NCBI GenBank assembly: GCA_044221725.1
Contig: JBGAON010000001.1
Coordinates: forward strand, 335,480 to 399,479
Source: Elusimicrobiota bacterium
GTDB taxonomy: Bacteria > Elusimicrobiota > Elusimicrobia > F11
Length of the DNA: 64,000 bases
Direction of reading: 5' to 3'
Both the position numbers and the translations under genes were made by a program. Shown in pieces: positions 2,296-59,319 of this stretch. Position 1 is the first letter of the stretch. Each line of letters begins with the position of its first letter. The notes under the pieces were generated by a model, which saw only the letters and a program-made list of their open reading frames with translations, was not told the origin of the DNA and searched no databases.

Positions 2296-2362
2296 GGTCA
2301 GTCAAATGGTCTATGGTCCAGGACCTATCGTTTATGGACTCAACGACCCCGCGACTCTTACA

Positions 2363-42759: not shown

Positions 42760-43911
42760 GTGAATTGGCGAAGTCACTTAGCATCCCCTCTTTTTTGCGG
42801 TTTTCTTTTGATAACCGCGCTCTCCACTAACAACTCTCAGGAACGATTGGGCGAAGCGCCCAAATCAGACGGCACCCCAAAAACCGTCGACTACAATATC
42901 ACGCGTGGTGAAGCGATTCCGGTCCCCGCAAAAAAGACCCGATTGCCGCTGGTGGTTTATGGCGACAGCAAAGGCGCCGTCGGCAGTTTCGCCCCAAGCG
43001 GATACATGGGCGATGTTGAATCGTTAAGAATCAAAGGCGCGGACTTTTCGGCACCGCTGACATCGTTGGGAGACGGAAGTTCGTGTTTGCGAGTTGAAGT
43101 GGTTCCTCGGGGTCGGCAAGGTTGGGCCGGACTCTATTGGCAAACGCCGGCCAACAATTGGGGAAAAATAAAAGGCGCGGGTTACGATCTTACGAAGGCG
43201 CAGCGGCTAACATTCTGGGCGCGCGGCGAAAAAGGCGGTGAGTTGATTGCGCAATTTTCGGTGGGAGGGCTTGTTGGTCCCTACCCCGATACCGATTCCG
43301 CGAAGCTTGGCCCCATTCGTCTCAACAAAGAGTGGACGCAGTATGTGATCGATCTCACAGCAAAAGATTTGCGCCACATTGTCGGAGGGTTTGAATTTAT
43401 CGTGCGGCGAACAGACAATCCACGCGGCGCGGTTTTCTACTTGGATGAAATTATTTTTCAAGGAGATGTGACCGTCAGCGAAGCACCGCCGCAGCCGCTC
43501 CCACCGCACCACGATTTAACGACGCAGCAGTTTCCCGAACCGTTGCCAACGATGCCGAAGCTAACAAAATCCGTTTTGGTGGTTGTTCCTTTTGACTCAG
43601 CAAAAACGGCGTTCGGCAAGGAAGGAACGGATTTGCTGAATGAAATTGCTGCCGTTTCGCACAAATACGCGGACGCTGCCATTCTTATTGAGGGTCACAC
43701 CGATAGCACGGGACCCGAAGCGGTCAATCAAAAACTATCCGAGATGCGTGCGAAAGCGGTGGCTGACTATTTGGTGACGAAAAACGTACCGCGCGAACGT
43801 ATGACGATAAAAGGGCACGGATCGGAACGGCCGGTACGCGAAGGAGCCAATTTGACGCCGGAAGGCCGAATGAAAAACCGTCGCGTGGAAGTAACGCTGG
43901 TGGCCCAGTGA
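42760..43911 (+). CDS. OmpA-family protein with N-terminal CBM-like beta-sandwich module
   Basis: GTG start. Module GWAGLYWQTPANNWGKIKGAGYDLTKAQRLTFWARGE...FYLDEIIF. Pro-rich linker. C-terminal OmpA domain (ILIEGHTDSTGPEAVNQKLSEMRAKAVADYL...RRVEVTLV). Confidence 0.65.
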   Translation: MNWRSHLASPLFCGFLLITALSTNNSQERLGEAPKSDGTPKTVDYNITRGEAIPVPAKKTRLPLVVYGDSKGAVGSFAPSGYMGDVESLRIKGADFSAPLTSLGDGSSCLRVEVVPRGRQGWAGLYWQTPANNWGKIKGAGYDLTKAQRLTFWARGEKGGELIAQFSVGGLVGPYPDTDSAKLGPIRLNKEWTQYVIDLTAKDLRHIVGGFEFIVRRTDNPRGAVFYLDEIIFQGDVTVSEAPPQPLPPHHDLTTQQFPEPLPTMPKLTKSVLVVVPFDSAKTAFGKEGTDLLNEIAAVSHKYADAAILIEGHTDSTGPEAVNQKLSEMRAKAVADYLVTKNVPRERMTIKGHGSERPVREGANLTPEGRMKNRRVEVTLVAQ

Positions 43912-44576
43912 AAAACCGAAACTTTTTCTTTTTGCTCGGAACGCTCGCTCTCGTGCCGGCCTGCGAGAAAAATCCTGTCGACAAACTGACGAATCCGTTG
44001 CCGAACGGTAGCGTTCCCCGATCCAGCGGTATTTATCCGATTTATCATGACGAGCTGGAAACGGGGGGTGGGCTTGGATTCATTCCTGGTGGCGAAAACC
44101 AGGTGATCGATTTGTTTGATAATTCGAGCCCCCGTCAGACCGCGCGTCAAATCCGCTACACATGGAATGGCGGCGATGTATCGGATGCGGAACACAGCAC
44201 CACCGCGCACACGTTTGCCGGTTTTTCGTTGTTGGTGACGCCAAACTTCTCCACCCTTTCGGCGGCGCCGGCAAAAGATCTTTCCACGGCCGGATACACA
44301 AAACTTACGCTTCTTCTCCGCGGTTCGTTGTCCACCGGCACCAAGCTGCGCGTTGAGGGGCCCAGCGACGGAACGGCAACCCCTGCTCGACAAGAGTTGG
44401 ATGCCGCGCAAATATCTCAAGCCTGGCAACTCGTGACGGTGGCCGTTCCGCCGTCTGATTTCTCCAATATCAAAACCTTCGCGACCATTTCGATTCAATA
44501 CACGCAGCCGCCTCGCACGACCAATCCAGGAGAAGGCGGAACAATTTACGTGACGCAGATTCAATATGAACGCTAG
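43908..44576 (+). CDS. hypothetical lipoprotein
   Basis: GTGA overlap with the upstream stop. Lipobox LVPAC. No recognisable catalytic motif. Confidence 0.5.
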   Translation: MKNRNFFFLLGTLALVPACEKNPVDKLTNPLPNGSVPRSSGIYPIYHDELETGGGLGFIPGGENQVIDLFDNSSPRQTARQIRYTWNGGDVSDAEHSTTAHTFAGFSLLVTPNFSTLSAAPAKDLSTAGYTKLTLLLRGSLSTGTKLRVEGPSDGTATPARQELDAAQISQAWQLVTVAVPPSDFSNIKTFATISIQYTQPPRTTNPGEGGTIYVTQIQYER

Positions 44577-45150: not shown

Positions 45151-45204
45151 AAAAATTTCTTGTGCGAGCGCACCTTGATTTAATATTTTGTGCGTGGAGA
45201 ACCT

Positions 45205-46104
45205 ATGTTTTTACCCACTTTATTCAACCGTTTGAATAAAATCTGGCCCTGCGCATTCGTGGCGGGCATGATCGCAACAACTCTTATGCTGCCTGGCTGC
45301 AAAAAGAAAGAACGGCTCACCGCTTCGACGTTTTCATTTTCGATTACGCCTCCCGCCTCCACTGTTTTGAAGACCGAATCGATCACGCTCATGGCAAAAG
45401 GTTCGTCGGCGAGCGGATCGGTGGACGTGAACCCCACGTGGAGCGTGTCGCCCACAACGCTGGGTTCTTTGAACACCACAATCGGACGCAGCGTCGTTTT
45501 TCAACCGACCGGTCTGGGAGACGTGGTGGTCACCGGCGTGTATGACGGCATTGCGGCGACATCACAAATTGCGATTGTGACCTACAAGCCCACCGCAAAC
45601 ACATTTGATATTTATAACGACAACGGACTTCCCGCCGGCAGCGACGTGGACAGCGATATTTTTACGTCGGGCGGGCTTTCTCTCACCGAGCTTTCGAGCG
45701 GGTACACACCGGAAGGTTCAAAGTACGAACACACCACCAATGCGATCACGAACAATTTTTGGGGCGTGACCGTTGATAAACTGAATACGGGGAAGCGAAA
45801 AGATCTTTCGGGATTTTCATCCGGCGCTCTGAAATTCTCGTTGCGCCTTGCGCGGTCGCTTTCCGTGACAGAAAGCATTCGAATCGATATTGTAGATTCG
45901 GCGCAAACGGTTTCGTACACGTTGAGCAGCGGTTCCGATAATTACAATCGACTGAGCACCGATTGGCAAGAAATTTCGTTGTCGTTGCCAGCACGATTTG
46001 CAACATTGGATAGCGCTCATGTAAAAGTACCGTTTGTAATTGTTCCGACGGCGCTGGGTGCGCCGTTGACCTTTGACGTTGATGCCGTTCGTTGGGAGCG
46101 GTAG
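45205..46104 (+). CDS. hypothetical lipoprotein
   Basis: Start set at ATG 45205 with SD GGAGA. Lipobox-like LMLPGC. Thr/Ser-rich beta-rich sequence. Confidence 0.45.
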   Translation: MFLPTLFNRLNKIWPCAFVAGMIATTLMLPGCKKKERLTASTFSFSITPPASTVLKTESITLMAKGSSASGSVDVNPTWSVSPTTLGSLNTTIGRSVVFQPTGLGDVVVTGVYDGIAATSQIAIVTYKPTANTFDIYNDNGLPAGSDVDSDIFTSGGLSLTELSSGYTPEGSKYEHTTNAITNNFWGVTVDKLNTGKRKDLSGFSSGALKFSLRLARSLSVTESIRIDIVDSAQTVSYTLSSGSDNYNRLSTDWQEISLSLPARFATLDSAHVKVPFVIVPTALGAPLTFDVDAVRWER

Positions 46105-46145
46105 CCGGCGAAGAAAATTTTTTGATCGAATTAAAGCGCTTGAAT

Positions 46146-47423
46146 ATGAATGGACATCGGAGAACAACAGTTGATTTAAATTTTTGGGTGATGCCGAATG
46201 CGGGTATCGCCACGCGGCATATTTTAAAAAGCTTTATCGATGAGTTTGAGCAGCTTCATCCGGAAGTTCGCGTCAATCTCGTAATCCACCCATGGTCGCT
46301 GGCGTGGAATCGGGTCATGGATGTGGTGAAAGGACGCAACACGCGCAGTGTTCCCGACGTCATGCAAATTGGAACTACCTGGGTTACCACTCTTGGTTAT
46401 CTGGGAGCGCTCGAAGAAGTCCCCGACGTTCCGTTCGGGCCACGGGATCAACGCATTGCCACATCCATCGGAGATTCAAGTGCGTTTTGTATTCCGTGGT
46501 TTATCGACATTCGGGTGCTGTATTACCGAAAAGATATTTTTCAGGCGTTTCGAATTGACCCGGCACTTCTAAACGATTGGAAGGGGTTTGCGCGGGCGTG
46601 CGCGGAACTCAAAAAAAACCTTTCAAGCAAGTCCGGCAAATTCTCTCGGATCATTGCGCCCTTGGGGATTCCGGGGCAAAAGCCCGGCGTTTTGATGCAC
46701 GACTTGGCCCCGTGGGTGTGGGAAGCGGGTGGCGACTTTTGCGCCGATGATTTGCGCGACACGAATTTAAATCAGGCGACGCTCATCGACGGATGCAAAT
46801 TTTATTTTGACCTCATCGATCAAGGTTTTATGCCGGTGCCAAACAGCGCCTTGCCGGCCGGAAATTTTTTCACGGGACATTACGCCATGCAGTTTTCGGG
46901 CAGCTGGCCGATCGATTCTTATTTGAATCCGACGTGGACCTACGCTGATCCCGACGTTGCAGCAAACGCCGGAGTGATGCCACTTCCCGAAGGACCTCAG
47001 GGGCGATACACGTTTTTGGGCGGCAGCAATTTGGCGGTACCGTCCTCGGCTCGGCATCGTGAAATCGCCTGGGAATTTGTGAATTTTCTTGTCGACCCTG
47101 TCCGGATCGTCAAGCATGCTCGGGGCATTGGTGCGTTACCCGCACGGCTGTCCGGTATGGAAAACTTGTTTGAACGGTTCCCGGCGGCCAAAGAAGTGTT
47201 TTTTAGTTCGTTCGGTTACGCGCGGCGTTTGCCCCGACTTGTGGAGCTCGGATCCATCGAGCAGATTATCTACAAGATGGGCGGTCGTTTGCTGTCCGCC
47301 GTTCGCGAAGGCTCTTACAACCAGAAGCGACTCCAGCAAGAAATAAACACCGCGAACAATGAAATTCGCTCGTTGCTGTCGATACACCGGTATGGTACGC
47401 GAATTTCGCAGGTAACCGCATGA
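46146..47423 (+). CDS. family-1 solute-binding-protein homologue lacking an obvious signal peptide
   Basis: MalE/UgpB-like conserved N-lobe (NLVIHPWSLAWNRVMD...TWVTTLGYLGALEEV). No hydrophobic leader at either candidate start (46092 or 46146). Stop overlaps the downstream GGDEF gene start (ATGA). Confidence 0.55.
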   Translation: MNGHRRTTVDLNFWVMPNAGIATRHILKSFIDEFEQLHPEVRVNLVIHPWSLAWNRVMDVVKGRNTRSVPDVMQIGTTWVTTLGYLGALEEVPDVPFGPRDQRIATSIGDSSAFCIPWFIDIRVLYYRKDIFQAFRIDPALLNDWKGFARACAELKKNLSSKSGKFSRIIAPLGIPGQKPGVLMHDLAPWVWEAGGDFCADDLRDTNLNQATLIDGCKFYFDLIDQGFMPVPNSALPAGNFFTGHYAMQFSGSWPIDSYLNPTWTYADPDVAANAGVMPLPEGPQGRYTFLGGSNLAVPSSARHREIAWEFVNFLVDPVRIVKHARGIGALPARLSGMENLFERFPAAKEVFFSSFGYARRLPRLVELGSIEQIIYKMGGRLLSAVREGSYNQKRLQQEINTANNEIRSLLSIHRYGTRISQVTA

Positions 47424-48982
47424 GCCAATTTCGTGCCCTCTTGGTATACGAAGAATTGTTGCGCTGTTTTCAGAACCACATGACGGCCTCGCACTTGGGA
47501 ATGGAACAGGCCTTTGAGTCGGGTTTTGGCTATTTGGCTTCGCGTCTGCGCCTCGAGCATGTGAGTTTGTTTTGGTGGGACCCTCATCGGCACGCGTTTA
47601 CCATGCAATATATTTTGCAAGACGGCGCGCTCATGGAAGGCGAGGATGAGATCGTCGTTGATGAGACAAGCGCGCTGCGTCCGTTGATTCAAGAGCGACG
47701 TCCGGTCGTTGTTTCCGAAAAGAAACCGTGGGCTGCGTTTCTACCGCTACAAATTGGAACGGAATTGTTGGGGGCGGTTCGACTGCAGCGGGCGCATCCG
47801 TTACCGAAAGGAAAAGTTTTGCTTCCGCTTTCACCGCTTATTACTCCGCTCGGTTCCCGAGCGAACGGGAATGGCAAACACTCGACAAAAGATCGGCTCA
47901 TGCCGTTTCTCGAAGACCTTGGCGACATATTCTCGATCCGATTTCATCAGTTGATTCGTGATGAAAAACACAAAAAGAAGGCCCAGGTTCTTCAAGCCAG
48001 CTCCGAAGTTGCGACCGCTGTTTTTGAGCGGCCGCGCTTGCGCGATATGTTGGAAGCGGTTTCCCGCAGCATTGTGCGAAATCTCGGGTTTGATCGCGTG
48101 CGCGTGTTTCTTGTGGACGTTGAGCAAACAAAACTCGAAGGAATTCTCGGACTGCAAATTCCCGACATGCTATTGGACATGACGGGCGAAAGTTATCCGC
48201 TGAGACCCAACACGAATTCGTTGGTTGACATGGTTCTCTCAGCAAAAGGGGCGTCGCACGTTCATCTCGTGGGGGGCCGTGTGGTTTACGTGCCGCTGAT
48301 TGTGAATAGCCAAGTGATTGGTTGTTTGGCGGCCGATAACTTGCTCAGTCAGCAATTGATAGACGAGGAGCAAATGGAAGCGCTTCGCACACTTACCGGC
48401 CAGATAGGCATGGCCGTGTTGAACGCGCGACTCTTCGAAGACATTGAACAGCAAGCGATCACGGACGGATTAACAAAGCTTTATGTGCACCGGTACTTCC
48501 AGCAGCGTCTCAAGGAAGAGATTGATCGCGCGGATCGCTACTCGTACAACATTGCTTTGATCATGATGGATGTCGATCACTTCAAGGCGCTGAACGACAG
48601 CCATGGGCATTTGATGGGCGACAAGGCGCTCGAGTATTTGTCGCAAGTGATTCGAAGCAACATTCGCCGAATCGATTTGGCCGCTCGGTATGGCGGGGAC
48701 GAGGTGGTGCTCGTTCTGCCGGAAATCACCGAACAGGAAGCGCTGCTGATGGGGGAGCGTTTGCTAAACGCAGTAAAAAAGGGAGTTCTTATTTCGTCGG
48801 ATGGGGCGAAGGTGCAAATGTCGGTTAGCATGGGTGCGGCGCTTTATTCGACGGACGCCCGCAACGCCCGGGACCTCATTGATGCGGCGGACAAAGCCCT
48901 GTTTTGGTCGAAGAAAAATGGGCGCGGCAACATCTGTTTCTACCGAACGATCCCCGCGCCGACCGAAAAAACAACGGCTTAA
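47420..48982 (+). CDS. GAF-domain diguanylate cyclase (GGDEF)
   Basis: Two GAF-like regions, then the GGDEF domain (DGLTKLYVHRYF...ALIMMDVDHFKALNDSHGHLMGDKAL...RYGGDEVVLVLP), active-site variant GGDEV. No TM segment. Confidence 0.85.
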   Translation: MSQFRALLVYEELLRCFQNHMTASHLGMEQAFESGFGYLASRLRLEHVSLFWWDPHRHAFTMQYILQDGALMEGEDEIVVDETSALRPLIQERRPVVVSEKKPWAAFLPLQIGTELLGAVRLQRAHPLPKGKVLLPLSPLITPLGSRANGNGKHSTKDRLMPFLEDLGDIFSIRFHQLIRDEKHKKKAQVLQASSEVATAVFERPRLRDMLEAVSRSIVRNLGFDRVRVFLVDVEQTKLEGILGLQIPDMLLDMTGESYPLRPNTNSLVDMVLSAKGASHVHLVGGRVVYVPLIVNSQVIGCLAADNLLSQQLIDEEQMEALRTLTGQIGMAVLNARLFEDIEQQAITDGLTKLYVHRYFQQRLKEEIDRADRYSYNIALIMMDVDHFKALNDSHGHLMGDKALEYLSQVIRSNIRRIDLAARYGGDEVVLVLPEITEQEALLMGERLLNAVKKGVLISSDGAKVQMSVSMGAALYSTDARNARDLIDAADKALFWSKKNGRGNICFYRTIPAPTEKTTA

Positions 48983-49181: not shown

Positions 49182-50171
49182 ATGAGTTGGATTATGGGCA
49201 TGAAACGCAACGGCGTGCATTTCTTGAAATTCCTTTTCCTCGGGCTGATGTTGAACGCGGGGATTTCGTGCACAGCATCCGCTGCTTTTCAAGAAGCTCT
49301 CTGGGGCGCTCGCCCCGCTTCTCTTGTTGGTGCCTACACCGCTCTTGCCGATGACTCAAATTCGCCCGCCTACAACCCCGCCGGAATCAGCATGCTCTCG
49401 CAGAATGAACTCACGTTTATGTACGCCCGGCTTTTCTCGGGTGTTAATTTTTATGCCGGGGAAGACACCTCGCGTTTGGGTCTCGGTTATTTCAGTTTCG
49501 CTCCAAACATTCGGGACAAGAAATACGGCAGTTACGCGATCAGTTGGAGCAATTTCGCCGCCACAAATCTTTACCGTGAAGACACTCTTACTTTTACCGC
49601 CGCCGATTCGTACCAGTTTGAATCGGTAAATTCCAAACCGATTTTATCGTATGGCGCGAATTTGAAATTCTTGCGCCGTTCGTTTTCGACCGATCAACGC
49701 ACGGACCAAGATCCCGTGTTCAAAAACGGGCGGGATTCAACAGGGGTAACACTTGATGCCGGTCTTCAATTGCGCCCGAACTGGAACGTTTTGCCCGGTT
49801 TGCGTTTCGGTTTAACCGGACAAAATTTAACCGAACCCGACATTGGTTTGGCCGCTACCGATCGCGTCCCGCTCCGCGTGGCTTTTGGCGCCGCTTACCA
49901 AGATCCGAACCTTCCGCTTTTTGGCCCCGCTGTGGAAATTTCTCAGCGCTCGGGTCGCACGCTCGTTACGGGCGCCTGGGAAACGTGGGTCTCAAAAAAC
50001 ACGCTCGCGTTTCGCGCCGGTGCGAACGCCGATGAAATCGGCGGCGGCGTGGGATATCAATTTCGTCTGCTAAGCAAAATGATGATGCGTTTCGATTACG
50101 CGATTCTGTGGCCGCTGAACATTGACGGCACCAACGGAAGTCATCGCGTGTCGATCTCAGCATCGTTTTGA
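49182..50171 (+). CDS. outer-membrane beta-barrel protein, FadL/PorV/PorP-SprF-like
   Basis: Signal peptide (alternative start ATG 49200 MKRNGVHFLKFLFLGLMLNAGISCTASA). NPAG motif (SPAYNPAGIS). C-terminal aromatic residue (...RVSISASF) typical of OM beta-barrels. ~300 aa mature. Confidence 0.55.
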   Translation: MSWIMGMKRNGVHFLKFLFLGLMLNAGISCTASAAFQEALWGARPASLVGAYTALADDSNSPAYNPAGISMLSQNELTFMYARLFSGVNFYAGEDTSRLGLGYFSFAPNIRDKKYGSYAISWSNFAATNLYREDTLTFTAADSYQFESVNSKPILSYGANLKFLRRSFSTDQRTDQDPVFKNGRDSTGVTLDAGLQLRPNWNVLPGLRFGLTGQNLTEPDIGLAATDRVPLRVAFGAAYQDPNLPLFGPAVEISQRSGRTLVTGAWETWVSKNTLAFRAGANADEIGGGVGYQFRLLSKMMMRFDYAILWPLNIDGTNGSHRVSISASF

Positions 50172-50231
50172 TCAGCAGATGAATGTTGTTCAGGCTTTGT
50201 AGAAAAGTAATTGGCTCAAAGGAGAGCAAAA

Positions 50232-51065
50232 ATGAAAAAGAAACTAGCAGTACTCGCGTTTGTCGCAACAGCGATCGGCGCATGGACGCCGTCGTGGGCG
50301 TTCCAGTTGGTTCAAATCGAAACAGTAACCGCGACGGCGGTGACAGGAGGAGCGAAGGTTGCGCGGTTTAACTTCGTTATTCGTGACGCTGCGAACGTAA
50401 ACGGCCCGAACCGTCCGAACCTCGGATGGTCCGGTGTTGATCCTCTGTCAACCCAATGGAAAATGTCAGATCAGGTTATCGTGATGGCTTCCACGGTTAC
50501 CGACGCTGCCGGTGGTATTCAGATCCACACCGACAACACGGCGGCCGATGCATCGCCGAAGTTTGTTGATCCGACCCCGGGCAACCTCATTAATCCAGAT
50601 TCGAACGCTGCCGGTTTGTTGCAGGGCACCTCGGGAGTAACGTCAACGGTTTTGCCGATGGCGTGGAGCATTAAGGACTCGTCGCGTACCGTTGAAAGTG
50701 GAACCGTCAATACCGGAATCGGCGCCGCCGATCCAAACAACGGCCCAATCACGGCGGTCTACAACACGAAGTATCAGTGGCTGTTCGTGACCGATAAATT
50801 CAACGTGCAAGGTATCGACTACAGCGGTGATGGGCTCGTAACGCCTGGTCCAAATTCTCCGGACGCCGCTCCGTTCGTGAATGGCGCCAAGTACATCACG
50901 ATGCGCAACTCGACCGGTATTCACTTCGGTCAAGCGGATGGTGAGTTTGCGTCGGTTCCTCAGGGACAAACGAACTATGTTTACTTCGAAGCCAACTTCT
51001 TGGGTTCGCAAGTGCAACAGACGTATCAAACAACGACTCTGCGTCTGGAAGCCTTCATCCAATAA
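50232..51065 (+). CDS. secreted protein sharing a C-terminal module with the 1325-aa surface protein
   Basis: Start at ATG 50232 with SD AAAGGAGAG. Signal peptide cleaved before AFQLVQIET. The region IQIHTDNTAADASPKFVDPTPGNLINPDSNAAGLL...MAWSIKDSS...YVYFEANF aligns to the last ~200 aa of 53165..57142. Confidence 0.6.
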   Translation: MKKKLAVLAFVATAIGAWTPSWAFQLVQIETVTATAVTGGAKVARFNFVIRDAANVNGPNRPNLGWSGVDPLSTQWKMSDQVIVMASTVTDAAGGIQIHTDNTAADASPKFVDPTPGNLINPDSNAAGLLQGTSGVTSTVLPMAWSIKDSSRTVESGTVNTGIGAADPNNGPITAVYNTKYQWLFVTDKFNVQGIDYSGDGLVTPGPNSPDAAPFVNGAKYITMRNSTGIHFGQADGEFASVPQGQTNYVYFEANFLGSQVQQTYQTTTLRLEAFIQ

Positions 51066-51068
51066 CGA

Positions 51069-51884
51069 TTGTTCGGAGTTTCGATCATGATTAAAACGCC
51101 AGAGTGGTGGAACCGAAAGGTTCCGCCACTCGGCGGTTTTTTCACGTTGCTTCTTTTGGCGGGTGCGCCCCCTGCGGCGCGCGCGTTCGAAATTGCGCCG
51201 TCTTACCAGTTGTTAAAGGCGCAGCCCGGGAAATCCGTGGACTCGCAATTAACATTAACGAACACCGACCAGGAAGAAATCAGCGTTGAACCAGAAGCCA
51301 AGGATTGGCAATCGCTCGAGGTGAACCGTGGGATCAAGGTGGCTGATTGGTTGTCTGTGGATAAGAAAATGTTTTTCTTGAAGCCCGGCCAATCGCGAAC
51401 CATTAAGTTCTCGGCGCGTGTGCCAAAAAATGCGCACGGCGAGCTTATGGGAATGCTTTCTTTTGCCACGAAAAAGGAATCGGCTCAATCCATCACGTTC
51501 AAACTGAGCTCAGCGGTTTATGTCGAAGTGGTTGGTACACAAAAGATCGACGCGCACGTGGACGCTATTACGATTCAATTGTCATCAAACACGCAGGTGG
51601 GATTGCTTGTGATCAATCGAGGGAACATCCATGTTCGTCCTCACTCCTACGTTCAGATTCTCAACGAAAAAAAGAGCCCGGTAGGCAACGTGGTCATTGC
51701 GCAGAATGAGCCTGTTTTCCCCGGAATACCAAAGCCAATTTTCGGAACCATTAGAAATTTTCGTTTGCCCGCGGGGACGTACACCGCACAGATTTCGATG
51801 CAAGACACGGACCACAACATGGAATTTCAGCCCGTGACAAAAAAGTTTTCGCTTTCGGAGAAAGGGGAGTTGACCGAAAAATAG
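51069..51884 (+). CDS. periplasmic hypothetical protein, possible PapD-like/Ig-fold chaperone-like
   Basis: N-terminal hydrophobic leader. Mature N-terminus AFEIAPSYQLL. Beta-strand-rich with LTLTNTDQEEISVEP and LKPGQSRTIKF, resembling pilus-chaperone N-domains. Weak. Confidence 0.3.
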   Translation: MFGVSIMIKTPEWWNRKVPPLGGFFTLLLLAGAPPAARAFEIAPSYQLLKAQPGKSVDSQLTLTNTDQEEISVEPEAKDWQSLEVNRGIKVADWLSVDKKMFFLKPGQSRTIKFSARVPKNAHGELMGMLSFATKKESAQSITFKLSSAVYVEVVGTQKIDAHVDAITIQLSSNTQVGLLVINRGNIHVRPHSYVQILNEKKSPVGNVVIAQNEPVFPGIPKPIFGTIRNFRLPAGTYTAQISMQDTDHNMEFQPVTKKFSLSEKGELTEK

Positions 51885-51890
51885 CTTTGT

Positions 51891-53165
51891 ATGAGAGACC
51901 GGAAACGTAAAAATAATTGGAGTGGCGGCTTCGCTCTGGTGCTTGGTTTGGCGCTGGCTGCTTTCTTGCGCCCTGTTTCTGCATTCCAGATTGTGCAGAC
52001 CTCCAATGTTACGTGCCGCGTGGTGATTGGCGGAGTTCCTCCGGGCAAATTGAAGTTCCAGCATAATCCTCTTCAAAAGGTTTCCCCGGTGGACGATATG
52101 ATCATTATCATGGGTCAGGCTGGTTCCGAAGTTTTACCGACCCAGCCCACGTACGAAGAGTCGCTTAAAACGAATTCGGATTTTGGGCCAGCAGAAGATC
52201 GGAAGATCCGCGTCGTTGTTCAATACCGATTTGTTCCCTCGCTCGATAATCAAGACTCCGTGCCGTTCGTAACGTCGAGCAATATCGAGGGTCCGGATCC
52301 TACACCGTTTGCTTTTCAAATTGATCCGGCGTCCGTTCAACCCGGTTTCTTCCAATATCGGTTTGTCGCAACCGGATTGAATTTCGTGAACGGGCAGCTT
52401 GTCCCGATTTCACAAACAACCGGAGAATTGTTTACGGTTGGTGTGCAGGCCAACGCAAGCCAGGTTTTCGGCCCGGCGGGCGGCACGTTTATTCTTGCGA
52501 ACGGAAACCAAGCAGTCGGCCAAACATCGTTGGCAATTCCTTCCGGTGTGTTTCGGCAGCCAACAACGGTTTCAATCGATGAGATTCCCTCGAATAGCCC
52601 CAGTGTTCCTGCTGGACTTAACAATCCAATCAGCGTGTTTCATCTTGATTCCGACGGGCCGGCACGCGGAATTTTCCAGTTATCGCTTGTGTATCCGGAC
52701 TTTGAATATCCGCGAGGTCGCGACGGGGTTGTTGATGGCACGAATATTCCGGTTCAAAACCTTTCAATCCAGTGGTGGGACGGGTTTGTGTGGCGCGGTG
52801 GCGGCGGGACAATCAACACAAAGACAAATACAATCTCGACGCGCATCAGCGCTTTGAGTTTCGTCGCAATAATGGCGGCGCCTGTGATGACGCCGGAGGA
52901 TCGGCGACCGCTGGAACGCGTGATCACACCGAATAGCGACGGCATTAACGATGTGCTCAATTTTGCGTTTGGTGATTTGGCCGAAGATGTAAAAGTGGAG
53001 ATTTTTGATGTCGGCGGTCACCGCGTGCGAACGCTTCATAGTTTGACAAACATGCAATGGGATGGTCGCGATGATGACGGCAAAGTGGTGGAAAGCGGTG
53101 TTTACATTTATCAATACGACGTCAACAGCAAACGCATCAGCGGCGTCGTCGCGGTGGCGAAATAA
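51891..53165 (+). CDS. secreted protein with T9SS type-B (gliding-motility-associated, CHU_C-like) C-terminal sorting domain
   Basis: Signal peptide cleaved before AFQIVQTSN. C-terminus ITPNSDGINDVLNF...VKVEIFDVGGHRVRTL...WDGRDDDGKVVESGVYIYQYDV matches the type-B CTD. Confidence 0.65.
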   Translation: MRDRKRKNNWSGGFALVLGLALAAFLRPVSAFQIVQTSNVTCRVVIGGVPPGKLKFQHNPLQKVSPVDDMIIIMGQAGSEVLPTQPTYEESLKTNSDFGPAEDRKIRVVVQYRFVPSLDNQDSVPFVTSSNIEGPDPTPFAFQIDPASVQPGFFQYRFVATGLNFVNGQLVPISQTTGELFTVGVQANASQVFGPAGGTFILANGNQAVGQTSLAIPSGVFRQPTTVSIDEIPSNSPSVPAGLNNPISVFHLDSDGPARGIFQLSLVYPDFEYPRGRDGVVDGTNIPVQNLSIQWWDGFVWRGGGGTINTKTNTISTRISALSFVAIMAAPVMTPEDRRPLERVITPNSDGINDVLNFAFGDLAEDVKVEIFDVGGHRVRTLHSLTNMQWDGRDDDGKVVESGVYIYQYDVNSKRISGVVAVAK

Positions 53166-56100
53166 TGGAAGCGAATAACTATTGTCGTCATTCCCGCGAA
53201 AGCGGGAATCTAGGTCTCAAGCAATTTTTTGAATTCAGGCTCAAAGCCTGGATTCCCGCTTTCGCGGGAATGACGTTATTGCTTTTGCCCGGACTGGTTC
53301 ATTCCGAAGCGACGAAGGAATATACGCGCGACGCCGGAATTTATAGCGCGAACCCGTTCAGTATCTTCACGTTCTCGTTTAGCTCGATCAACGTTGATTT
53401 TGATTCCACGTCGGACCCGAACCCGCCAGAGGGATTAAAAGTCGCGAGCACAACCGTCGCGACCCAATGGGGAGGATGGGGAATATTCAATACGACCGCG
53501 ATGGGCAACAACGTCGTTACCGATTTGAATTTTTCGGACTATGTGAACGGGCATTTGCGATTCTGGTTAAAAAGCCAAATTGCGCTTGATGTAAAGATCG
53601 AATATCAGCAGGGGTCGAATGCCGTGCAAGTTTCCAGCAGCGTGGCCAGCACAGGCAACGCGTGGAAAGAAATTGTAATTCCATTGCAGTCGGGTGGCTT
53701 TGGTCTAAACAACGGTCAGATGAACCGCATCCGTTCTCCATTTATTGTGGTGGCTCCGCAAACGACCGGCGTGCAAAAGCAATGGTTCATCGATCACGTG
53801 CGCTGGACAAAACCTGTCACGTCCATCGTTATGTATCCGCCGTCGACCACGGTTCAACAAGGTTTCCACCGCTTGTTTACCGCGGAAGGTCGCGATGCCG
53901 CGAACGAACGTGTCATTATTTACCCCACGTTCAGTGTTTCTCCGACGGTCGGAACATTTACTCCGGCTGACCCGACTCCGGTCACAGCGTCACGCTTGAA
54001 CGCGACCGGCGCGAGCGGCGTTGCAAACGCGGTTTTTTCACCGCTATCGGCGTCCTCCGTGGTCACCATTACCGGATCTCACATTAATGACGAGCTTGGG
54101 TTGCTTAGTGAAACAATCCCGTCGTCGTTGATCCTTAATACTGACAGCGAGTTGGATGTGTCCTCGGGCGGCGGCGGGACGGATCCGGTGTTATTGGATG
54201 AATCGAGCAGTGATGTACGGGAGGGCGTGCGCCGTTTTAAAACGACCATCAGCGCGCAGCCGGCGAATGGCTTTAGCGGGTGGTTTATTCAATGGAGTAC
54301 GAACGCCGCGAACACGGTGACACGCGACATGAGCAATTATTACGACGGATCGTTGCGGTTCTGGTTCAAAGGTCCGGCCGCTCTACAAAACGTACTCCAG
54401 ATTTCTGTTCGGTCCGGAAATACCGAAGCGGGCACCGAACTATCAAAAGTGAATCTCAAGAACTACGTGACGTTCGATGACACGTGGCGACCGGTTGTCA
54501 TTCCCATTTCCGATTTCACTGGTGCGCGGCCCAAAGCCGATTTGTCGCGCATGAAAATATTGTTCGGAGCTTTTGCGGTCGGTGCCGTTGGAAGCGTACA
54601 AACGTTCTATATCGATAATCTTCGCTGGGACACAAATATTCCCGGCGCGCTGGCATCGCTCACGGTGTCGCCAGCATCGGTGACGGTTCCGCTTTCAGCG
54701 AAACGCCAATTCGTCGCCAAAGGCTTCGACGCGAACGGCGTGTCCGTTGACATCTTCCCAACATGGACAATCACCGGTGGCATCGGTTCGGTAAACCCAT
54801 CGCAGGGGGCCATCACGCAATTGACCGCCGCCAGCTCCGCGCAATCGGGAACTCTCAAAGCCAGTCAAGGAGCGGTATCAGCGACCGCGTCGGTAAACGT
54901 GGCCGATGTTCAATGGGTGCAGTCGTTCAACGTGTATTCGGACAATGGGTCTGGCGGATTTGTTGGAGTTGCTAAGGGAACGAACAACGGCACCGTGATG
55001 AATTTGAGCGAGCAAAATTTGGGCGCGGGCGTGGCGCCCGAAGGAAAATTTGTGCGCCAATCGAACTACACACTCGTTAACAATCCGAATCTTCAAGACG
55101 CGTTCGCGATTTGGTTCACCAACGCGGACGCGGGCACCGGCTCGCGCTTCATGCATTACTTTGATACGGGCTATCTTTATTTTTGGGTACGCACGACTCA
55201 GGACCTACAAATCTCGATTCGCTCCGCCAACATAACAGCGGGGAACGAGCGTTCGAAATTTCGATTGAGTGAGCTTGGTGTTCCGCTCGACAACAATTGG
55301 CAGAAAGTGGTGATCGCGCTTGCCGATTTCAAGAACCGCGAACCGCTTTTGGATTTTGACCAGATTCAAACGTATTTCGCTATCGGCGCCGTGTCGTCGC
55401 AGATTGGGCCTGTTACGAACCAAACGTTTGACGTCGATGATGTGAAATGGCTCACGAACAATCCGGGCCAGCCCGACGACAACAAGATTTACATTGGTCT
55501 CAAAGAGAAACAGGCCGCGGGGGGGCTTGTGCGGTCGTTCGATACGTTGCTCGATGCGTACACCTACGATCAGGCGCTTGCCGCTATGAATTACACGTAC
55601 CGAAAGGACGTGGCGTTATCCAAAAAAGTTTTTGACGTTTATAAATATGTCCATGATAATTACGGCGGTACCTTCAGCGGTTTTCACGAGGATTACAACA
55701 TCAATTCGGCGGTGGGCGGGTACACGGTGCTGAATAGCAGTCGCGTCGCCGGGCCAAACGCTTGGATTCTTCTCGCGATGATTCATTACCGGAATGTAAC
55801 GGGTTCCACCGCGTACGACACGGTGATTAACGACGTGGCGGCGTGGTTGCGCGGATTGCAGGGGGCTGACGGTGCTGTGCAGTTTGGGCGTGTAAATTCG
55901 ACATTGATCACTCTTAAATCCACCGAACACAATTTCGATGTGGTGGCCGCGTTTCGCGCGTACGCAAAAATGAGTGGCAACAGTGCGTACAACAGTTACG
56001 CGGACGCCGCGCGCAATTGGCTTCAGACACAAATGTACGTTCCCGCCCAGCAACGTTTTAACGTGGGCACGTACGCGAACGGAACCACAAACACGGATCG

Positions 56101-57142
56101 TGCGCTCGACGCTTATTCGTGGGCCCCTCTCGCCCTTTCCTCCTTCACGAACGTGTTGACGACCGCCGAGACCGATTTCAAGAACACAAAGGTGTGTGAT
56201 TTGACGGGACTCAGTGTCACGGGATTTGATTTTTCGGGTCCACCCAACTTTGGCCCCGACTTGGACGCGGTGTGGTTGGAGGGAACAGGCCAAATGGCGC
56301 TTGCCTATTACCTTACCGACAATCTCGCGAAAGGCGATTTTTACCTGCAAGAGCTCGATAAAGCGATCGTGAACACGTCCGCCAACGGCCAGGGCATGGC
56401 GTACGCGACGAACAACGGCACCGCCTACGGTTTTAATATGAATTCGCTGAATCCAGCCATAAGTTCAATGGCGTGGTATCTGTTTGCAAAGCAGAAATTC
56501 AATCCGTTCAAGCCTTATCCGATTTATGAGTTAAAAATCATGGACACGGCGTCCGGGACCGAACGTTCGTCGGTTGGCTTTACGGTTTCGGTTCCCGCGG
56601 CATGGGTGCGAGCGGATCAATACATCAAGCTCGATGTGCAACCGAATTCGGTCGATCCGTGGGGCTTGCAAATTTTGACGGATAACACGCAGCCAACCGT
56701 GGTTCCTCGTTTTGTTGATCCCACGCCGGGAACAACGTCCAATTCGGACTCGAATCCAGCGGGACTCCTTTTGGAATTGACCGGTCAAACAACAACGCCG
56801 TACCAAATCAACATGGCGTGGAGCGTCAAGGATACGAGCGCAACCGCCACCATGCCAATCGCAACCGATCCAAATTCCGGCGCGCCAAACTCCTTTCAGT
56901 GGATTTTTATGAAAGACCGCGCGACTCCAGACATTCCTTCAATGAACACGGTCGCGTTTGCGAACGGGCAAGATGATGTGATTGTTCGAAAAGCCGTGAG
57001 CGGAAGTCATACGTCCCAGGGACCTGCCGGATACACCGCTTCCGTTTCGCCGGACTACTTATTTCTAGAAGCAAATTTTAATTCCGCTGCGGCCCAGGTC
57101 CGCTACTTAGCGCATATCACGTTCGAATTTTTCCTGCAATGA
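53165..57142 (+). CDS. 1325-aa secreted multidomain surface protein (3 CBM-like beta-sandwich modules, 2 Big_2 Ig-like domains, alpha/alpha-toroid-like domain, C-terminal shared module)
   Basis: ATG overlaps the upstream stop (TAATG), but the first 35 codons are the translation of the palindromic element (SRESGN / IPAFAGMT). A more plausible start is ATG 53270. Repeated ...LRFWLKS / LRFWFKG / LYFWVRT modules. Big_2 segments (TVSPASVTVPLSAKRQFVAKGFDANG). Central GPNAWILLAMIHY...TG module. Last ~200 aa paralogous to 50232..51065. Confidence 0.6.
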   Translation: MEANNYCRHSRESGNLGLKQFFEFRLKAWIPAFAGMTLLLLPGLVHSEATKEYTRDAGIYSANPFSIFTFSFSSINVDFDSTSDPNPPEGLKVASTTVATQWGGWGIFNTTAMGNNVVTDLNFSDYVNGHLRFWLKSQIALDVKIEYQQGSNAVQVSSSVASTGNAWKEIVIPLQSGGFGLNNGQMNRIRSPFIVVAPQTTGVQKQWFIDHVRWTKPVTSIVMYPPSTTVQQGFHRLFTAEGRDAANERVIIYPTFSVSPTVGTFTPADPTPVTASRLNATGASGVANAVFSPLSASSVVTITGSHINDELGLLSETIPSSLILNTDSELDVSSGGGGTDPVLLDESSSDVREGVRRFKTTISAQPANGFSGWFIQWSTNAANTVTRDMSNYYDGSLRFWFKGPAALQNVLQISVRSGNTEAGTELSKVNLKNYVTFDDTWRPVVIPISDFTGARPKADLSRMKILFGAFAVGAVGSVQTFYIDNLRWDTNIPGALASLTVSPASVTVPLSAKRQFVAKGFDANGVSVDIFPTWTITGGIGSVNPSQGAITQLTAASSAQSGTLKASQGAVSATASVNVADVQWVQSFNVYSDNGSGGFVGVAKGTNNGTVMNLSEQNLGAGVAPEGKFVRQSNYTLVNNPNLQDAFAIWFTNADAGTGSRFMHYFDTGYLYFWVRTTQDLQISIRSANITAGNERSKFRLSELGVPLDNNWQKVVIALADFKNREPLLDFDQIQTYFAIGAVSSQIGPVTNQTFDVDDVKWLTNNPGQPDDNKIYIGLKEKQAAGGLVRSFDTLLDAYTYDQALAAMNYTYRKDVALSKKVFDVYKYVHDNYGGTFSGFHEDYNINSAVGGYTVLNSSRVAGPNAWILLAMIHYRNVTGSTAYDTVINDVAAWLRGLQGADGAVQFGRVNSTLITLKSTEHNFDVVAAFRAYAKMSGNSAYNSYADAARNWLQTQMYVPAQQRFNVGTYANGTTNTDRALDAYSWAPLALSSFTNVLTTAETDFKNTKVCDLTGLSVTGFDFSGPPNFGPDLDAVWLEGTGQMALAYYLTDNLAKGDFYLQELDKAIVNTSANGQGMAYATNNGTAYGFNMNSLNPAISSMAWYLFAKQKFNPFKPYPIYELKIMDTASGTERSSVGFTVSVPAAWVRADQYIKLDVQPNSVDPWGLQILTDNTQPTVVPRFVDPTPGTTSNSDSNPAGLLLELTGQTTTPYQINMAWSVKDTSATATMPIATDPNSGAPNSFQWIFMKDRATPDIPSMNTVAFANGQDDVIVRKAVSGSHTSQGPAGYTASVSPDYLFLEANFNSAAAQVRYLAHITFEFFLQ
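53187..53274. repeat. MITE-like palindromic element: perfect 24-bp terminal inverted repeats flanking 40 bp
   Basis: GTCATTCCCGCGAAAGCGGGAATC (53187-53210) and its exact reverse complement GATTCCCGCTTTCGCGGGAATGAC (53251-53274). Each arm is itself a hairpin (ATTCCCGC-GAAA-GCGGGAAT). The central 40 bp contains a further hairpin AGGCT-CAA-AGCCT. Confidence 0.75.
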
Positions 57143-59319
57143 TTCTCGATCCGTCGCCGATTTCTGCGTCCGATCGAAAGTTAAAACATCCTTCCGCAGA
57201 AAAGAAATCGGGGCGGCGCGAAAAGGTCGGATTTGCGTTGCTGATCCTGTTGGCGTTTGTCGGGTCTTTCGGCATCTGGAGATGGGAGCCGAAATGGGCC
57301 AAGCCATCCGTCCCGCCCGTTGAAAAGCCGCTGGTACGGCTTCCCGTGCCAGACACCATCGATGAGCGCCACCGCGAACACATTAAAAACGTTTTGTCGG
57401 TGATCGAATCCAACATCAATCCCGAAACCTACCTCGCCTACAGTTTCAGTGGAGACAAAAGACTCGAGTATTGGAGCGTTGTCTACGACAATTGCATTCG
57501 CGCGATCGTTCACTTGCAAACCGGACAGCCGGAGCTCGCCAAGAAAATAATCGACTACTTCATCGATAACACCGCGATCCAAAAAATCGGTTGGGTTCGG
57601 AAGAATCACCGGTTGGTGGCTCGGACGGGGTGGGTCATAAATATTGTCGATGCGTCGGAATCGCGTGCGGGCGGTCGTGGCATCGAACATATTGCGCATA
57701 CCGGCCCCAACGCTTACCTCGGAATTGCAGCGCTCCATATTTTTGAAGTGACGGGGGAGCAAAAATATTTGCGGTTCGCCAAGAAACAGTGGGAATTATT
57801 AAAGGATTTGCAGAACGAAGATCCGCAAGATCCGAATTTCGGCGGAATTCGTATGGGGCCCATGGGCAATCCCGCCAATCCACGCGAGCAGCGCTTGGAT
57901 TTTAAACCATCGAATCCGTCGTTCTATGAGTTTTATAACGGTGAGCATGCGGCGGATTTTAAAGCGTTTTCCGAACTCCTTTCGGTTTACGATCTCGAAA
58001 ATCAAGAACGCTATGAAAAAGCAGTGGATCTCATTGAGACGTGGGATCACCGAATTTACGATGCCGAAAAACATTTGTTTTATATCGGTACCACCGAAAA
58101 GAAATTTTTTGATCCAAACATCGGGCAATGGATAAGCGTCGGGGTAATTCCGATGTATCCACTCGATACAAGCTCGTTAAAGATTTCCGCCTATGGAGTT
58201 GATGGATTGGAACAGTTTGAGAAGAACGCCGCGCAGAAAATTCGCAAAGCGATCGATGACAACTTCAAGGTGACCGTGAGGATCCCCGATGGCAGCGGAG
58301 GTTTCAAGTCCGTTTCCGGTTATGACTTTGTTTGCAATTCGGACCGAGCGCGACTGATTCGCTTCGTTGAAATGGGACACTACGGCGACCGAAAAATAAA
58401 CGAAGGCATCGGACGCGAACCGCTGCTCAGTGACGAATGGTCGAATTGGGTAGCGCTCGCCGATCTTCGACTCACCGCTGACTTTGAAAAGAAAAACGAC
58501 AACCGAAAGGCCACGATGTATTCAAACGCTTACTATGAAAACGCGCTCGTGAGCTCGATGAAAACGTCGATGTCGGTCGATGGGGGGCTTGCATATCCCT
58601 ACGCGCAACCGCTGCCCGATTCGTTAAACAAGCCGGTCGGTTTCGGTTGGAACACACATCACGAGCCGTACGCGATCATTGGCGGTGCCGCGCGAATTCT
58701 GGGCATTTTGCGATTTGATCCGTTTCTCGCGCGTGGCGGGGATCGATCAACGACGGTCAATGTCGAGGTGAAGAAACTGGGCAGGCCCATCGGAGAAATG
58801 CGTGACAAGGCCGTACTTTACACCGAGGCCGAGCTGTATTTGCGCGATGCGTGGCGGGATTTGCGCGTGGCACAAATCAATGGACCGAAAGCGGAGTTGT
58901 ACTGGAGCTGTGCTCGAGCCACGTGTGAGAGGATGCTTCGTGAACACCAAGATTGGGTTGATGTGGCGATGTCGCAGAACAACAGTTTAAGACTCTCGCG
59001 GCAGCCATTTCCTCTCACGGGGGTTGCGAATTTGACGGAACGAGATTTGGAGCCGGTTTATCGAAAATATTGGGCGCTTTATCATATCGGCACCGCGGAA
59101 TTTATTTTGGTCGTTGCCAATGCGGGGCTGCGCGATATTTACCGCGAGCGCGGCGACGTTGGGCGTGCCGACGCATTGAATCTAAAAGCCATTGAAGCGG
59201 CAAAACGAATTAAAAAAGATTTTTGTTTTGCGCAGTCTTACGACGAGGGCGGTTGGTTATGGCAACCCGCGCAAGCCATTAACGAATACGTTGATCTCGC
59301 GGGGCCGATAAATCACTAA
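57139..59319 (+). CDS. membrane-anchored protein with alpha/alpha-toroid-like module
   Basis: ATGA overlap with the upstream stop. Single N-terminal TM (VGFALLILLAFVGSFGIW). Module GPNAYLGIAALHIFEVTGEQKYLRFAKKQWELL is paralogous to the central domain of 53165..57142. Confidence 0.5.
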   Translation: MILDPSPISASDRKLKHPSAEKKSGRREKVGFALLILLAFVGSFGIWRWEPKWAKPSVPPVEKPLVRLPVPDTIDERHREHIKNVLSVIESNINPETYLAYSFSGDKRLEYWSVVYDNCIRAIVHLQTGQPELAKKIIDYFIDNTAIQKIGWVRKNHRLVARTGWVINIVDASESRAGGRGIEHIAHTGPNAYLGIAALHIFEVTGEQKYLRFAKKQWELLKDLQNEDPQDPNFGGIRMGPMGNPANPREQRLDFKPSNPSFYEFYNGEHAADFKAFSELLSVYDLENQERYEKAVDLIETWDHRIYDAEKHLFYIGTTEKKFFDPNIGQWISVGVIPMYPLDTSSLKISAYGVDGLEQFEKNAAQKIRKAIDDNFKVTVRIPDGSGGFKSVSGYDFVCNSDRARLIRFVEMGHYGDRKINEGIGREPLLSDEWSNWVALADLRLTADFEKKNDNRKATMYSNAYYENALVSSMKTSMSVDGGLAYPYAQPLPDSLNKPVGFGWNTHHEPYAIIGGAARILGILRFDPFLARGGDRSTTVNVEVKKLGRPIGEMRDKAVLYTEAELYLRDAWRDLRVAQINGPKAELYWSCARATCERMLREHQDWVDVAMSQNNSLRLSRQPFPLTGVANLTERDLEPVYRKYWALYHIGTAEFILVVANAGLRDIYRERGDVGRADALNLKAIEAAKRIKKDFCFAQSYDEGGWLWQPAQAINEYVDLAGPINH

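Follow-up and report, generated by a model that had tools for sequence, protein, structure and literature searches.

What role can be assigned to a short peptide that opens the mature form of otherwise unrelated secreted proteins encoded side by side? The question is raised by a 64,000-nt stretch of contig JBGAON010000001.1 of an Elusimicrobiota bacterium, hereafter the window, by which we always mean the whole stretch, and more precisely by four of its consecutive genes, here named A, B, C and D, which, like every gene discussed below, lie on the + strand (Table 1). An earlier note, made from the sequence alone, had pointed out that the predicted mature proteins of A, B and C start with a common F-[QE]-[LI]-[VA]-[QP] pattern and had proposed that it recalls donor-strand or sorting peptides. 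Our analyses show that A and C share a conserved N-terminal peptide, whereas the likeness of B is a coincidence, and they suggest that this peptide acts in trans as a donor strand on the core domain of A, also present at the C-terminus of D, to form a fibre with tip, shaft and anchor like that of TasA/TapA. We estimate the probability of this reading at roughly 55%. Fibres held together by donor-strand complementation comprise the chaperone-usher pili of Gram-negative bacteria and the TasA-like fibres, a group that the literature confines to monoderm bacteria and archaea.

A scan of species-representative genomes yielded 11 related loci, 10 of them from Elusimicrobiota, including Candidatus Obscuribacterium magneticum, and one from a genome labelled Clostridia. 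The cassette is syntenic in at least nine loci, in the order solute-binding protein, GAF-GGDEF cyclase, PorV/UPF0164-like barrel, A (one or two copies), B, C and D. The three mature N-termini given in the earlier note proved exact (with an arrow for cleavage, PSWA↓FQLVQIETVTA in A, AARA↓FEIAPSYQLL in B and PVSA↓FQIVQTSNVTC in C). At all three sites the -3/-1 rule is obeyed, with small residues, and a helix-breaking proline is found at -4 to -6. A crude predictor of our own returned the same site for B and C and the upstream AIGA↓W for A; for the latter, A↓F is preferred because AIGA↓W is not kept in homologues and A↓F is (Ala in 86% and Phe in 88% of 143 members). In the six-frame translation of the whole 64 kb, F[QE][LI][VA][QP] occurs three times, always at the cleavage sites of A, B and C, and, among 136 signal-peptide-like open reading frames (ORFs) from the window and the related loci, Phe at +1 or +2 was restricted to the A, C and barrel families plus this one B. 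The motif is thus not common among unrelated secreted proteins of this set. The further comparison with type IV pilin-like leaders had to be abandoned, since these are ordinary Sec signal peptides whose hydrophobic stretch stands before the cleavage site and not after it.

The shared N-terminus holds for A and C, which keep it across both families, and fails for B. In the 10 B orthologues from the related loci the N-terminus reads Leu/Ile-x-[VIA]-x-P, with an invariant Pro, and Phe occurs only in the genome studied here. The FEIAP of B is predicted to be the first strand of its own immunoglobulin (Ig)-like domain, and its likeness to the A/C motif is a coincidence; the donor-strand idea, which stands for A and C, does not extend to B.

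A and C are indeed otherwise unrelated, as had been proposed: A is composed of a jelly-roll-like core and C of a string of Ig/fibronectin type 3 (Fn3)-like domains that ends in CHU_C. From the Phe onward 9 of 17 residues are identical (BLASTP, E 7e-4), and the similarity is confined to the first 25-29 residues, which rules out paralogy of the two proteins. The shared peptide comprises 17 residues, A↓F-[QT]-S-V-x-x-x-T-x-T-A-x-[AV]-x-x-G-G, and is found family-wide in both A and C. The 143 full-length A members follow A(86%)↓F(88%)-[T/Q]-S(81%)-V-x-x-x-T(69%)-x-T(74%)-A(100%)-x-[A/V]-x-x-G-G(81%), the invariant Ala being peptide position 11; the C family retains the Phe in 24 of 30 sequences, the Ser in 21, the Ala in 23 and the two Gly in 23-26. 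A hidden Markov model (HMM) of the whole A family finds no match in C proteins beyond the signal peptide and the N-terminal peptide, the E-values in this small set going down to 1e-6. It performs better than a 17-residue HMM of the A N-termini, which placed A and some C proteins at the top of 1284 ORFs but whose shortness kept it from returning useful E-values for every C protein, that of the window included. Within C, conservation measured as top-residue frequency amounts to 0.50 in the peptide, against 0.58 in the folded part and 0.24 in the signal peptide.

The peptides of A and C also change together. In 13 genomes with A-C peptide pairs, the two share 7.9 of 17 identities within a genome and 6.1 between genomes, with BLOSUM scores of 34 and 23, respectively (permutation p about 1e-4). 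Since the two coding segments differ at synonymous positions in the window, recent gene conversion is ruled out and the likeness within genomes is better explained by selection.

The A family is large, with 65 homologues in a word-indexed search and 561 representative clusters in a full profile search, none of which has a Pfam family or a name; a Pfam search of 54 members at E up to 10 retrieved neither WxL nor Peptidase_M73, and no match at all. An AlphaFold2 model of A, built from the family alignment, reached a mean predicted local distance difference test score (pLDDT) of 91.4 and a predicted template modelling score of 0.83. Its first 20 mature residues contain no strand according to DSSP and have pLDDT values of 69-84, the first strand of the core being formed by residues 44-52. 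The corresponding model of C (pLDDT 87.1) places the peptide, devoid of secondary structure, in the sole internal region with pLDDT below 50. Beyond the peptide, Foldseek relates C to arrays of Ig/Fn3-like domains, including those of PorU and PorZ; its C-terminus matches Pfam CHU_C well above threshold (E 5.5e-11, 42.9 bits for a cutoff of 27) and TIGR04131 just below it (33.7 for 35), and CHU_C was detected in 35 of 41 C-family matches.

The most informative partner, which the earlier note left out, is the 1325-residue D, endowed with an A-type core but no peptide. Residues 53-284 of A (in the 284-amino-acid numbering that starts at the TTG at 50211, namely the core from its first strand) align by BLASTP with residues 1121-1325 of D, its last 205 (E 5e-22). 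Upstream, D carries a CBM30 module (E 1e-8) and, directly before the core, the end of a carbohydrate-binding-like module followed by the proline-rich linker NPFKPYP. A survey of 204 family members included 38 long, D-type proteins. Without exception, the A-type core of these 38 ends within 0-9 residues of the C-terminus, and the profile match, which begins at position 39-60, does not cover the peptide (positions 25-41) in any of them; D-type proteins with the core and without the peptide were seen in 8 loci as well. Their payloads comprise CBM30 (7 proteins), the xyloglucan-binding SGBP_B_XBD (4), CBM11, a GH2 barrel and PKD domains. A handful of small proteins contain just a signal peptide and the core (e.g. 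L014:1593-2291). Three classes of protein are therefore observed: peptide plus core (A), peptide alone on an unrelated body (C) and core alone (D and the small cap proteins).

A possible contact between peptide and core emerges from a peculiarity of the genome studied here. It is the only one in which the Ser at peptide position 3 has been replaced in both proteins, by Leu in A and by Ile in C, and its cores have also lost a conserved Tyr, replaced by His in A and by Leu in D. This Tyr was found by looking for core columns in which the A of the window departs from a strong consensus, the Tyr of GGIQIYTDN being the clearest. Members with Leu at position 3 lack the core Tyr in 4 of 5 cases, versus 7 of 144 among the others (Fisher p 8e-5; alignment columns 27 and 100). 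With identities of 28-50% to each other, these five do not represent one recent lineage. Among D-type proteins the Tyr is found in 7 of 7 other loci and in the 36 of 38 representatives in which a pattern search located the site, and it is invariant in the 38-member alignment. Since C lacks a core and D the peptide, only contact between molecules can explain the changes seen in these two proteins. The donor-strand proposal stands for A and C on both counts, as their shared peptide is unfolded in the AlphaFold models and co-varies with the core.

We propose that the mature N-terminal peptide of A and C would complete, or dock on, the jelly-roll-like core of the next subunit, either another A or the C-terminus of D, in a polar, non-covalent fibre. 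D, having a core without a peptide, would only accept a strand and would thus occupy the distal tip, where its glycan-binding modules would be displayed. Equipped with both elements, A would donate and accept, polymerising head to tail into the shaft. C, with a peptide and no core, would only donate and would close or start the fibre on the cell side, where the PorV-like barrel, a candidate docking site, would hold the Ig-like stalk and CHU_C domain of C. B probably keeps unpolymerised cores soluble in the periplasm, and the solute-binding protein, likely a sensory input, together with the GGDEF cyclase, probably ties expression or assembly to a sugar signal through cyclic di-GMP control.

The possible chaperone function of B, already suggested in the earlier note, is plausible, although a place in the PapD family was not borne out. 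Ten of the 11 B orthologues match the DUF916/WxLIP_PGBD model below threshold, with a best E of 3e-5 and 21.9 bits for the B of the window (cutoff 27.3), and one of the 11 matches a flagellar PapD-like model (E 0.007). No DUF3324 was detected in B, and its C-terminus contains no hydrophobic helix; a search of Protein Data Bank (PDB) sequences gave no match, and the word-indexed homologue search retrieved only B itself. These weak Pfam matches make B a plausible candidate for a periplasmic chaperone. The complete picture, in which diderm Elusimicrobiota would assemble an usher-less donor-strand-exchange fibre with a glycan-binding tip, a shaft of ~250-residue jelly-roll subunits, a CHU_C donor on a PorV-like barrel and a DUF916-like chaperone, is offered more tentatively, at somewhat less than even odds.

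The main rival explanation, which we consider unlikely, is that the peptide serves as a sorting or export signal. An exposed F-x-S...T-x-T-A peptide would be recognised by B or by the barrel, sending A and C to the surface in the way of an N-terminal type IX signal. Its location at the extreme mature N-terminus of two unrelated proteins encoded beside a PorV-like barrel and an Ig-like protein fits this idea, as does its predicted disorder, a trait of many recognition peptides. Nevertheless, D and the small cap proteins of the cassette have no peptide, which is consequently not needed for their export, and C already possesses in CHU_C a candidate targeting or anchoring module. Moreover, a residue of the A-type core varies together with the peptide, and the core of D has changed in step, whereas inspection of the B alignment showed no such change. 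The covariation would be left unexplained if A↓F-x-S were a processing mark, either the site of a specialised signal peptidase (as SipW for TasA/TapA) or of an N-terminal modification, instead of a binding element. The restriction of Phe at +1/+2 to the barrel, A and C families of the cassette speaks for such a mark, and so does the dedicated signal peptidase of TasA-type systems (10.64898/2026.01.04.697558). Yet neither an S26/S24 peptidase nor a modifying enzyme was found within about 10 kb in the related loci L002, L003 and L005 or in the window cassette, and conservation extends over 17 residues past the cleavage site, with Ala 11 invariant, far beyond what a peptidase needs. We regard this possibility as very improbable.

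It is also improbable, in our view, that the peptide works exclusively in cis, as an N-terminal latch or an edge strand of its own fold, and that a short module was simply shuffled between A and C. The moderate pLDDT of the segment in the A model (69-84) means that it may pack on its own core, and TasA monomers are self-complemented before assembly (PMC9674648). However, C, in which the peptide is modelled as disordered, has no A-type core to pack on; the core of D, a protein devoid of the peptide, has undergone the matching replacement of Tyr by Leu; and the peptides of A and C co-vary within genomes. As for a chance likeness of three short N-termini, the five-residue pattern was defined after the fact, composition leads us to expect about one match per 128,000 translated residues (our own estimate), and B is indeed a case of coincidence. 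For A and C, by contrast, chance is refuted by a motif that persists in hundreds of sequences and in loci whose identity falls to about 30%, and its likelihood as a general explanation is negligible.

Several points weigh against the trans donor-strand fibre. The cassette contains no usher, SprA-like translocon or dedicated signal peptidase, leaving export across the outer membrane unexplained, and strand insertion, the open groove, fibre polarity, the roles of B and of the barrel and the crossing of the outer membrane are all parts that we infer. In a Foldseek search of the PDB, the TasA fibre 8aur was the top match of A (E 0.016, probability 0.66), followed by viral jelly rolls and the cannula protein CanA (9hdi), but this likeness is weak (TM-score about 0.3, root-mean-square deviation 11 Å); no sequence or profile homology between A and the TasA superfamily was found, hhalign giving a probability of 3.6% over the signal peptide only (with a TasA sequence entered by hand), and the A profile retrieved no chain among PDB sequences. 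The Ser/Tyr covariation rests on five sequences and was noticed post hoc, and a scan of parallel and antiparallel registers by mutual information with average product correction yielded no diagonal that reached significance (best z 2.8 of 458), although the Ser27-Tyr100 register is among its three best parallel offsets (73, 75 and 77). Cleavage sites were assessed by rules, by conservation and by our crude predictor. Finally, two metagenomic relatives of C from another lineage (P0101 and P0103) carry an A-type core, devoid of the peptide, joined straight to the Ig and CHU_C part. The anchor is consequently not always the donor, and in these cases the anchored protein would be an acceptor, reversing the proposed polarity.

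Table 1. Genes, domains and sites of the cassette, with positions counted from the first nucleotide of the window
Feature	Position	Strand	Description
Solute-binding protein	46092..47423	+	Pfam SBP_bac_1, E 4e-26; upstream member of the cassette
GAF-GGDEF diguanylate cyclase	47420..48982	+	Pfam GGDEF, E 4e-42, plus GAF; candidate upstream regulator
PorV/PorQ/UPF0164-like outer-membrane beta-barrel	49182..50171	+	Mature N-terminus A↓AFQE
Gene A	50232..51065	+	Signal peptide, N-terminal peptide, jelly-roll-like core; ATG at 50232
Gene A, alternative start	TTG at 50211	+	
Gene A, N-terminal peptide FQLVQIETVTATAVTGGAKV	50301..50360	+	Proposed donor strand; Leu at position 3 (50307-50309) in place of family Ser
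Gene A, core His99 in GGIQIHTDN	50526..50528	+	Tyr in 94% of the family; proposed contact for donor position 3
Gene B	51069..51884	+	Two-domain Ig-like protein; alternative ATG start at 51087
Gene C	51891..53165	+	Signal peptide, N-terminal peptide, Ig/Fn3-like domains, C-terminal CHU_C (52917-53138)
Gene C, N-terminal peptide FQIVQTSNVTCRVVIGGVP	51984..52040	+	Proposed donor strand; Ile at position 3 (51990-51992) in place of family Ser
Gene C, peptide FQIVQTSNVTCRVVIGG			
Gene D	53165..57142	+	1325 residues; signal peptide, CBM30-type and other modules, proline-rich linker, C-terminal A-type core
Gene D, A-type core	56525-57139	+	Without N-terminal peptide
Gene D, core Leu1171 in PWGLQILTDN	56675..56677	+	Tyr in other D-type proteins

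The genes of the cassette are tightly packed, to the point that the stop codon of C overlaps the start of D (TAATG). The solute-binding protein gene occupies an equivalent position in L002, L003, L005 and L009, and the cyclase gene is syntenic in these four loci and in L006. The PorV-like barrel, found in all related loci, exceeds the Pfam UPF0164 cutoff (26.1 bits for 21.4), yet its match to the NCBIfam PorV_fam model, despite an E of 1.3e-9, has 38 bits for a cutoff of 90. Its own mature N-terminus (near 49284) reads A↓A-F-[QK]-[ED]-x-x-W-G-A-R-P in every orthologue seen; because the NCBIfam PorV model spans this region, the Phe of the barrel may be a family trait and not a third copy of the A/C motif. 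Some loci encode two A paralogues (L013:9932-11535 and L015:8268-10708), and L015 also has two B paralogues. As each A copy carries the N-terminal peptide, shafts may be mixed or of alternative kinds.

Other genes of the window deserve mention. D is followed at 57139-59319 by a gene that overlaps its stop codon and may be co-expressed with it. The 726-residue product has a membrane anchor at its N-terminus and resembles GH47 only faintly; the gene is not kept at that position in the other loci examined. Upstream of the cassette, the gene at 39988-41952 codes for a secreted protein of 654 residues that belongs to no Pfam or NCBIfam family. It is kept in related loci, where it sometimes reaches 770-940 residues with an OmpA-like C-terminus (L005, L013 and L015); we consider it a candidate for the missing outer-membrane channel. 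Similar short strands (IQYER, VDAVRWER, IDHVRWTK, IDNLRWDT and VDDVKWLT) close modules of several proteins of the cluster, encoded at 43908-44576, at 45190-46104 and in three internal stretches of 53165-57142. This suggests that a carbohydrate-binding-like module is repeated across two lipoproteins and D, only one copy being recognised by Pfam (CBM30). Farther away, the gene at 2306-3493 encodes FlgD-Ig/CHU_C-like repeats and an OmpA peptidoglycan-binding domain, resembling the Leptospira adhesin Lsa66, which indicates that CHU_C/FlgD-Ig modules are used elsewhere in this genome without a type IX context. Another gene, at 18301-24078, encodes a 1925-residue secreted-looking protein in which residues ~1228-1406 resemble the NAD-binding domain of D-2-hydroxyacid/phosphoglycerate dehydrogenases (E 1.3e-19), an odd combination.

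If the complete picture outlined above is correct, the cassette would reveal a new route of outer-membrane assembly in an uncultured, poorly known diderm phylum and link the TasA/TapA and WxL/Csc systems of Gram-positive bacteria to a diderm counterpart. It would show a clear division of labour between tip, shaft and anchor, with tips carrying carbohydrate-binding modules, and the paired changes (Leu/Ile for Ser in the peptides, His/Leu for Tyr in the cores) would point to an exact contact. A function for the A family, with its 561 clusters devoid of Pfam family or annotation, would also provide a label for a sizeable block of hypothetical proteins.

How does this locus compare with known surface systems? 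In type IX secretion, PorV and PorQ hold PorU and PorZ. The cassette is reminiscent of this arrangement in that a PorV/PorQ-like barrel is encoded beside a protein ending in a CHU_C (type B) domain, with PorU and PorZ among the fold matches of C. It differs in that this C-terminal domain is present on C only, not on A or D, and in the score of the barrel, far below the NCBIfam PorV cutoff. No type IX machinery (SprA, PorK/L/M/N or the PorU sortase) appeared in the 64 kb window and the cassette flanks, and Elusimicrobiota are not known for type IX secretion. With chaperone-usher pili (Fim, Pap, Csu, CupE) the resemblance lies in the proposed logic: a tip without N-terminal extension and a shaft with it (38 D-type versus 143 short members), a donor at the cell end, a two-domain Ig-like periplasmic helper and shaft extensions that alternate small and hydrophobic residues. 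However, no usher was found in the window cassette or the related loci and no PapD-family chaperone, the subunit consists of a ~230-residue jelly-roll-like core instead of an incomplete Ig fold, and the barrel is small and of PorV/FadL type.

WxL/Csc clusters are built on a four-part gene set that comprises small WxL, large WxL, WxLIP (DUF916+DUF3324) and LPxTG proteins (PMC9772566, PMC10599100, PMC1534035). They have been proposed to act in carbohydrate acquisition (PMC1534035, PMC9772566), and an AlphaFold prediction has a strand of WxLIP completing the WxL sandwich (PMC10599100). The present cassette parallels them with a small secreted single-domain protein, a large one that ends in the same domain and begins with binding or carbohydrate-active domains, a two-domain Ig-like protein with a distant resemblance to DUF916, and a separate candidate anchor. 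The shared domain, in particular, has its equivalent in the A core that makes up the C-terminal 205 residues of D, with CBM30, SGBP_B_XBD, CBM11 and GH2 as D-type payloads. By contrast, the A members and D have no match to Pfam WxL (PF13731), B lacks the C-terminal transmembrane helix of WxLIP, and the anchor would involve CHU_C and an outer-membrane barrel in place of LPxTG and peptidoglycan. We know of no description of a shared N-terminal donor peptide in WxL clusters.

The TasA superfamily (TasA/TapA of Bacillus subtilis, AbpA, AbpX, CanA and Tafi) offers a view of what A and C might do, and the best, though weak, PDB fold neighbours of A, the TasA fibre and CanA, are donor-strand fibres belonging to it. 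Its members have a jelly-roll-type beta-sandwich after a Sec signal peptide, as A is predicted to have, and an aromatic residue at mature position 1-2 followed by an amphipathic strand. To this aromatic corresponds, as far as sequence goes, the Phe at +1/+2 in 88% of A and 24 of 30 C proteins. The donor strand of AbpX has a conserved aromatic at position 2 that works as a clamp, and genes for a tip adhesin and an anchor are found at Tafi loci too (10.64898/2026.01.04.697558). The N-terminus of TapA resembles the TasA donor strand and nucleates fibres; TapA is a minor accessory protein in which an N-terminal peptide of similar appearance precedes an unrelated Ig-like body, and it has a part in anchoring or initiation (PMC9674648, PMC10151520), the place that we propose for C. 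According to published descriptions, filaments of the TasA type are confined to monoderms (10.1101/2024.12.30.630787). The cassette studied here differs by its diderm host, by the absence of an S24/S26 signal peptidase (within about 10 kb in L002, L003 and L005 and in the window cassette) and by the addition of an outer-membrane barrel, an Ig-like periplasmic protein and predicted acceptor-only tips that carry glycan-binding modules. On the strength of these analogies, we lean slightly towards a locus that works like a donor-strand fibre while standing outside the TasA, WxL/Csc and chaperone-usher families. It would then represent a third donor-strand arrangement, dispensing with both usher and dedicated signal peptidase.

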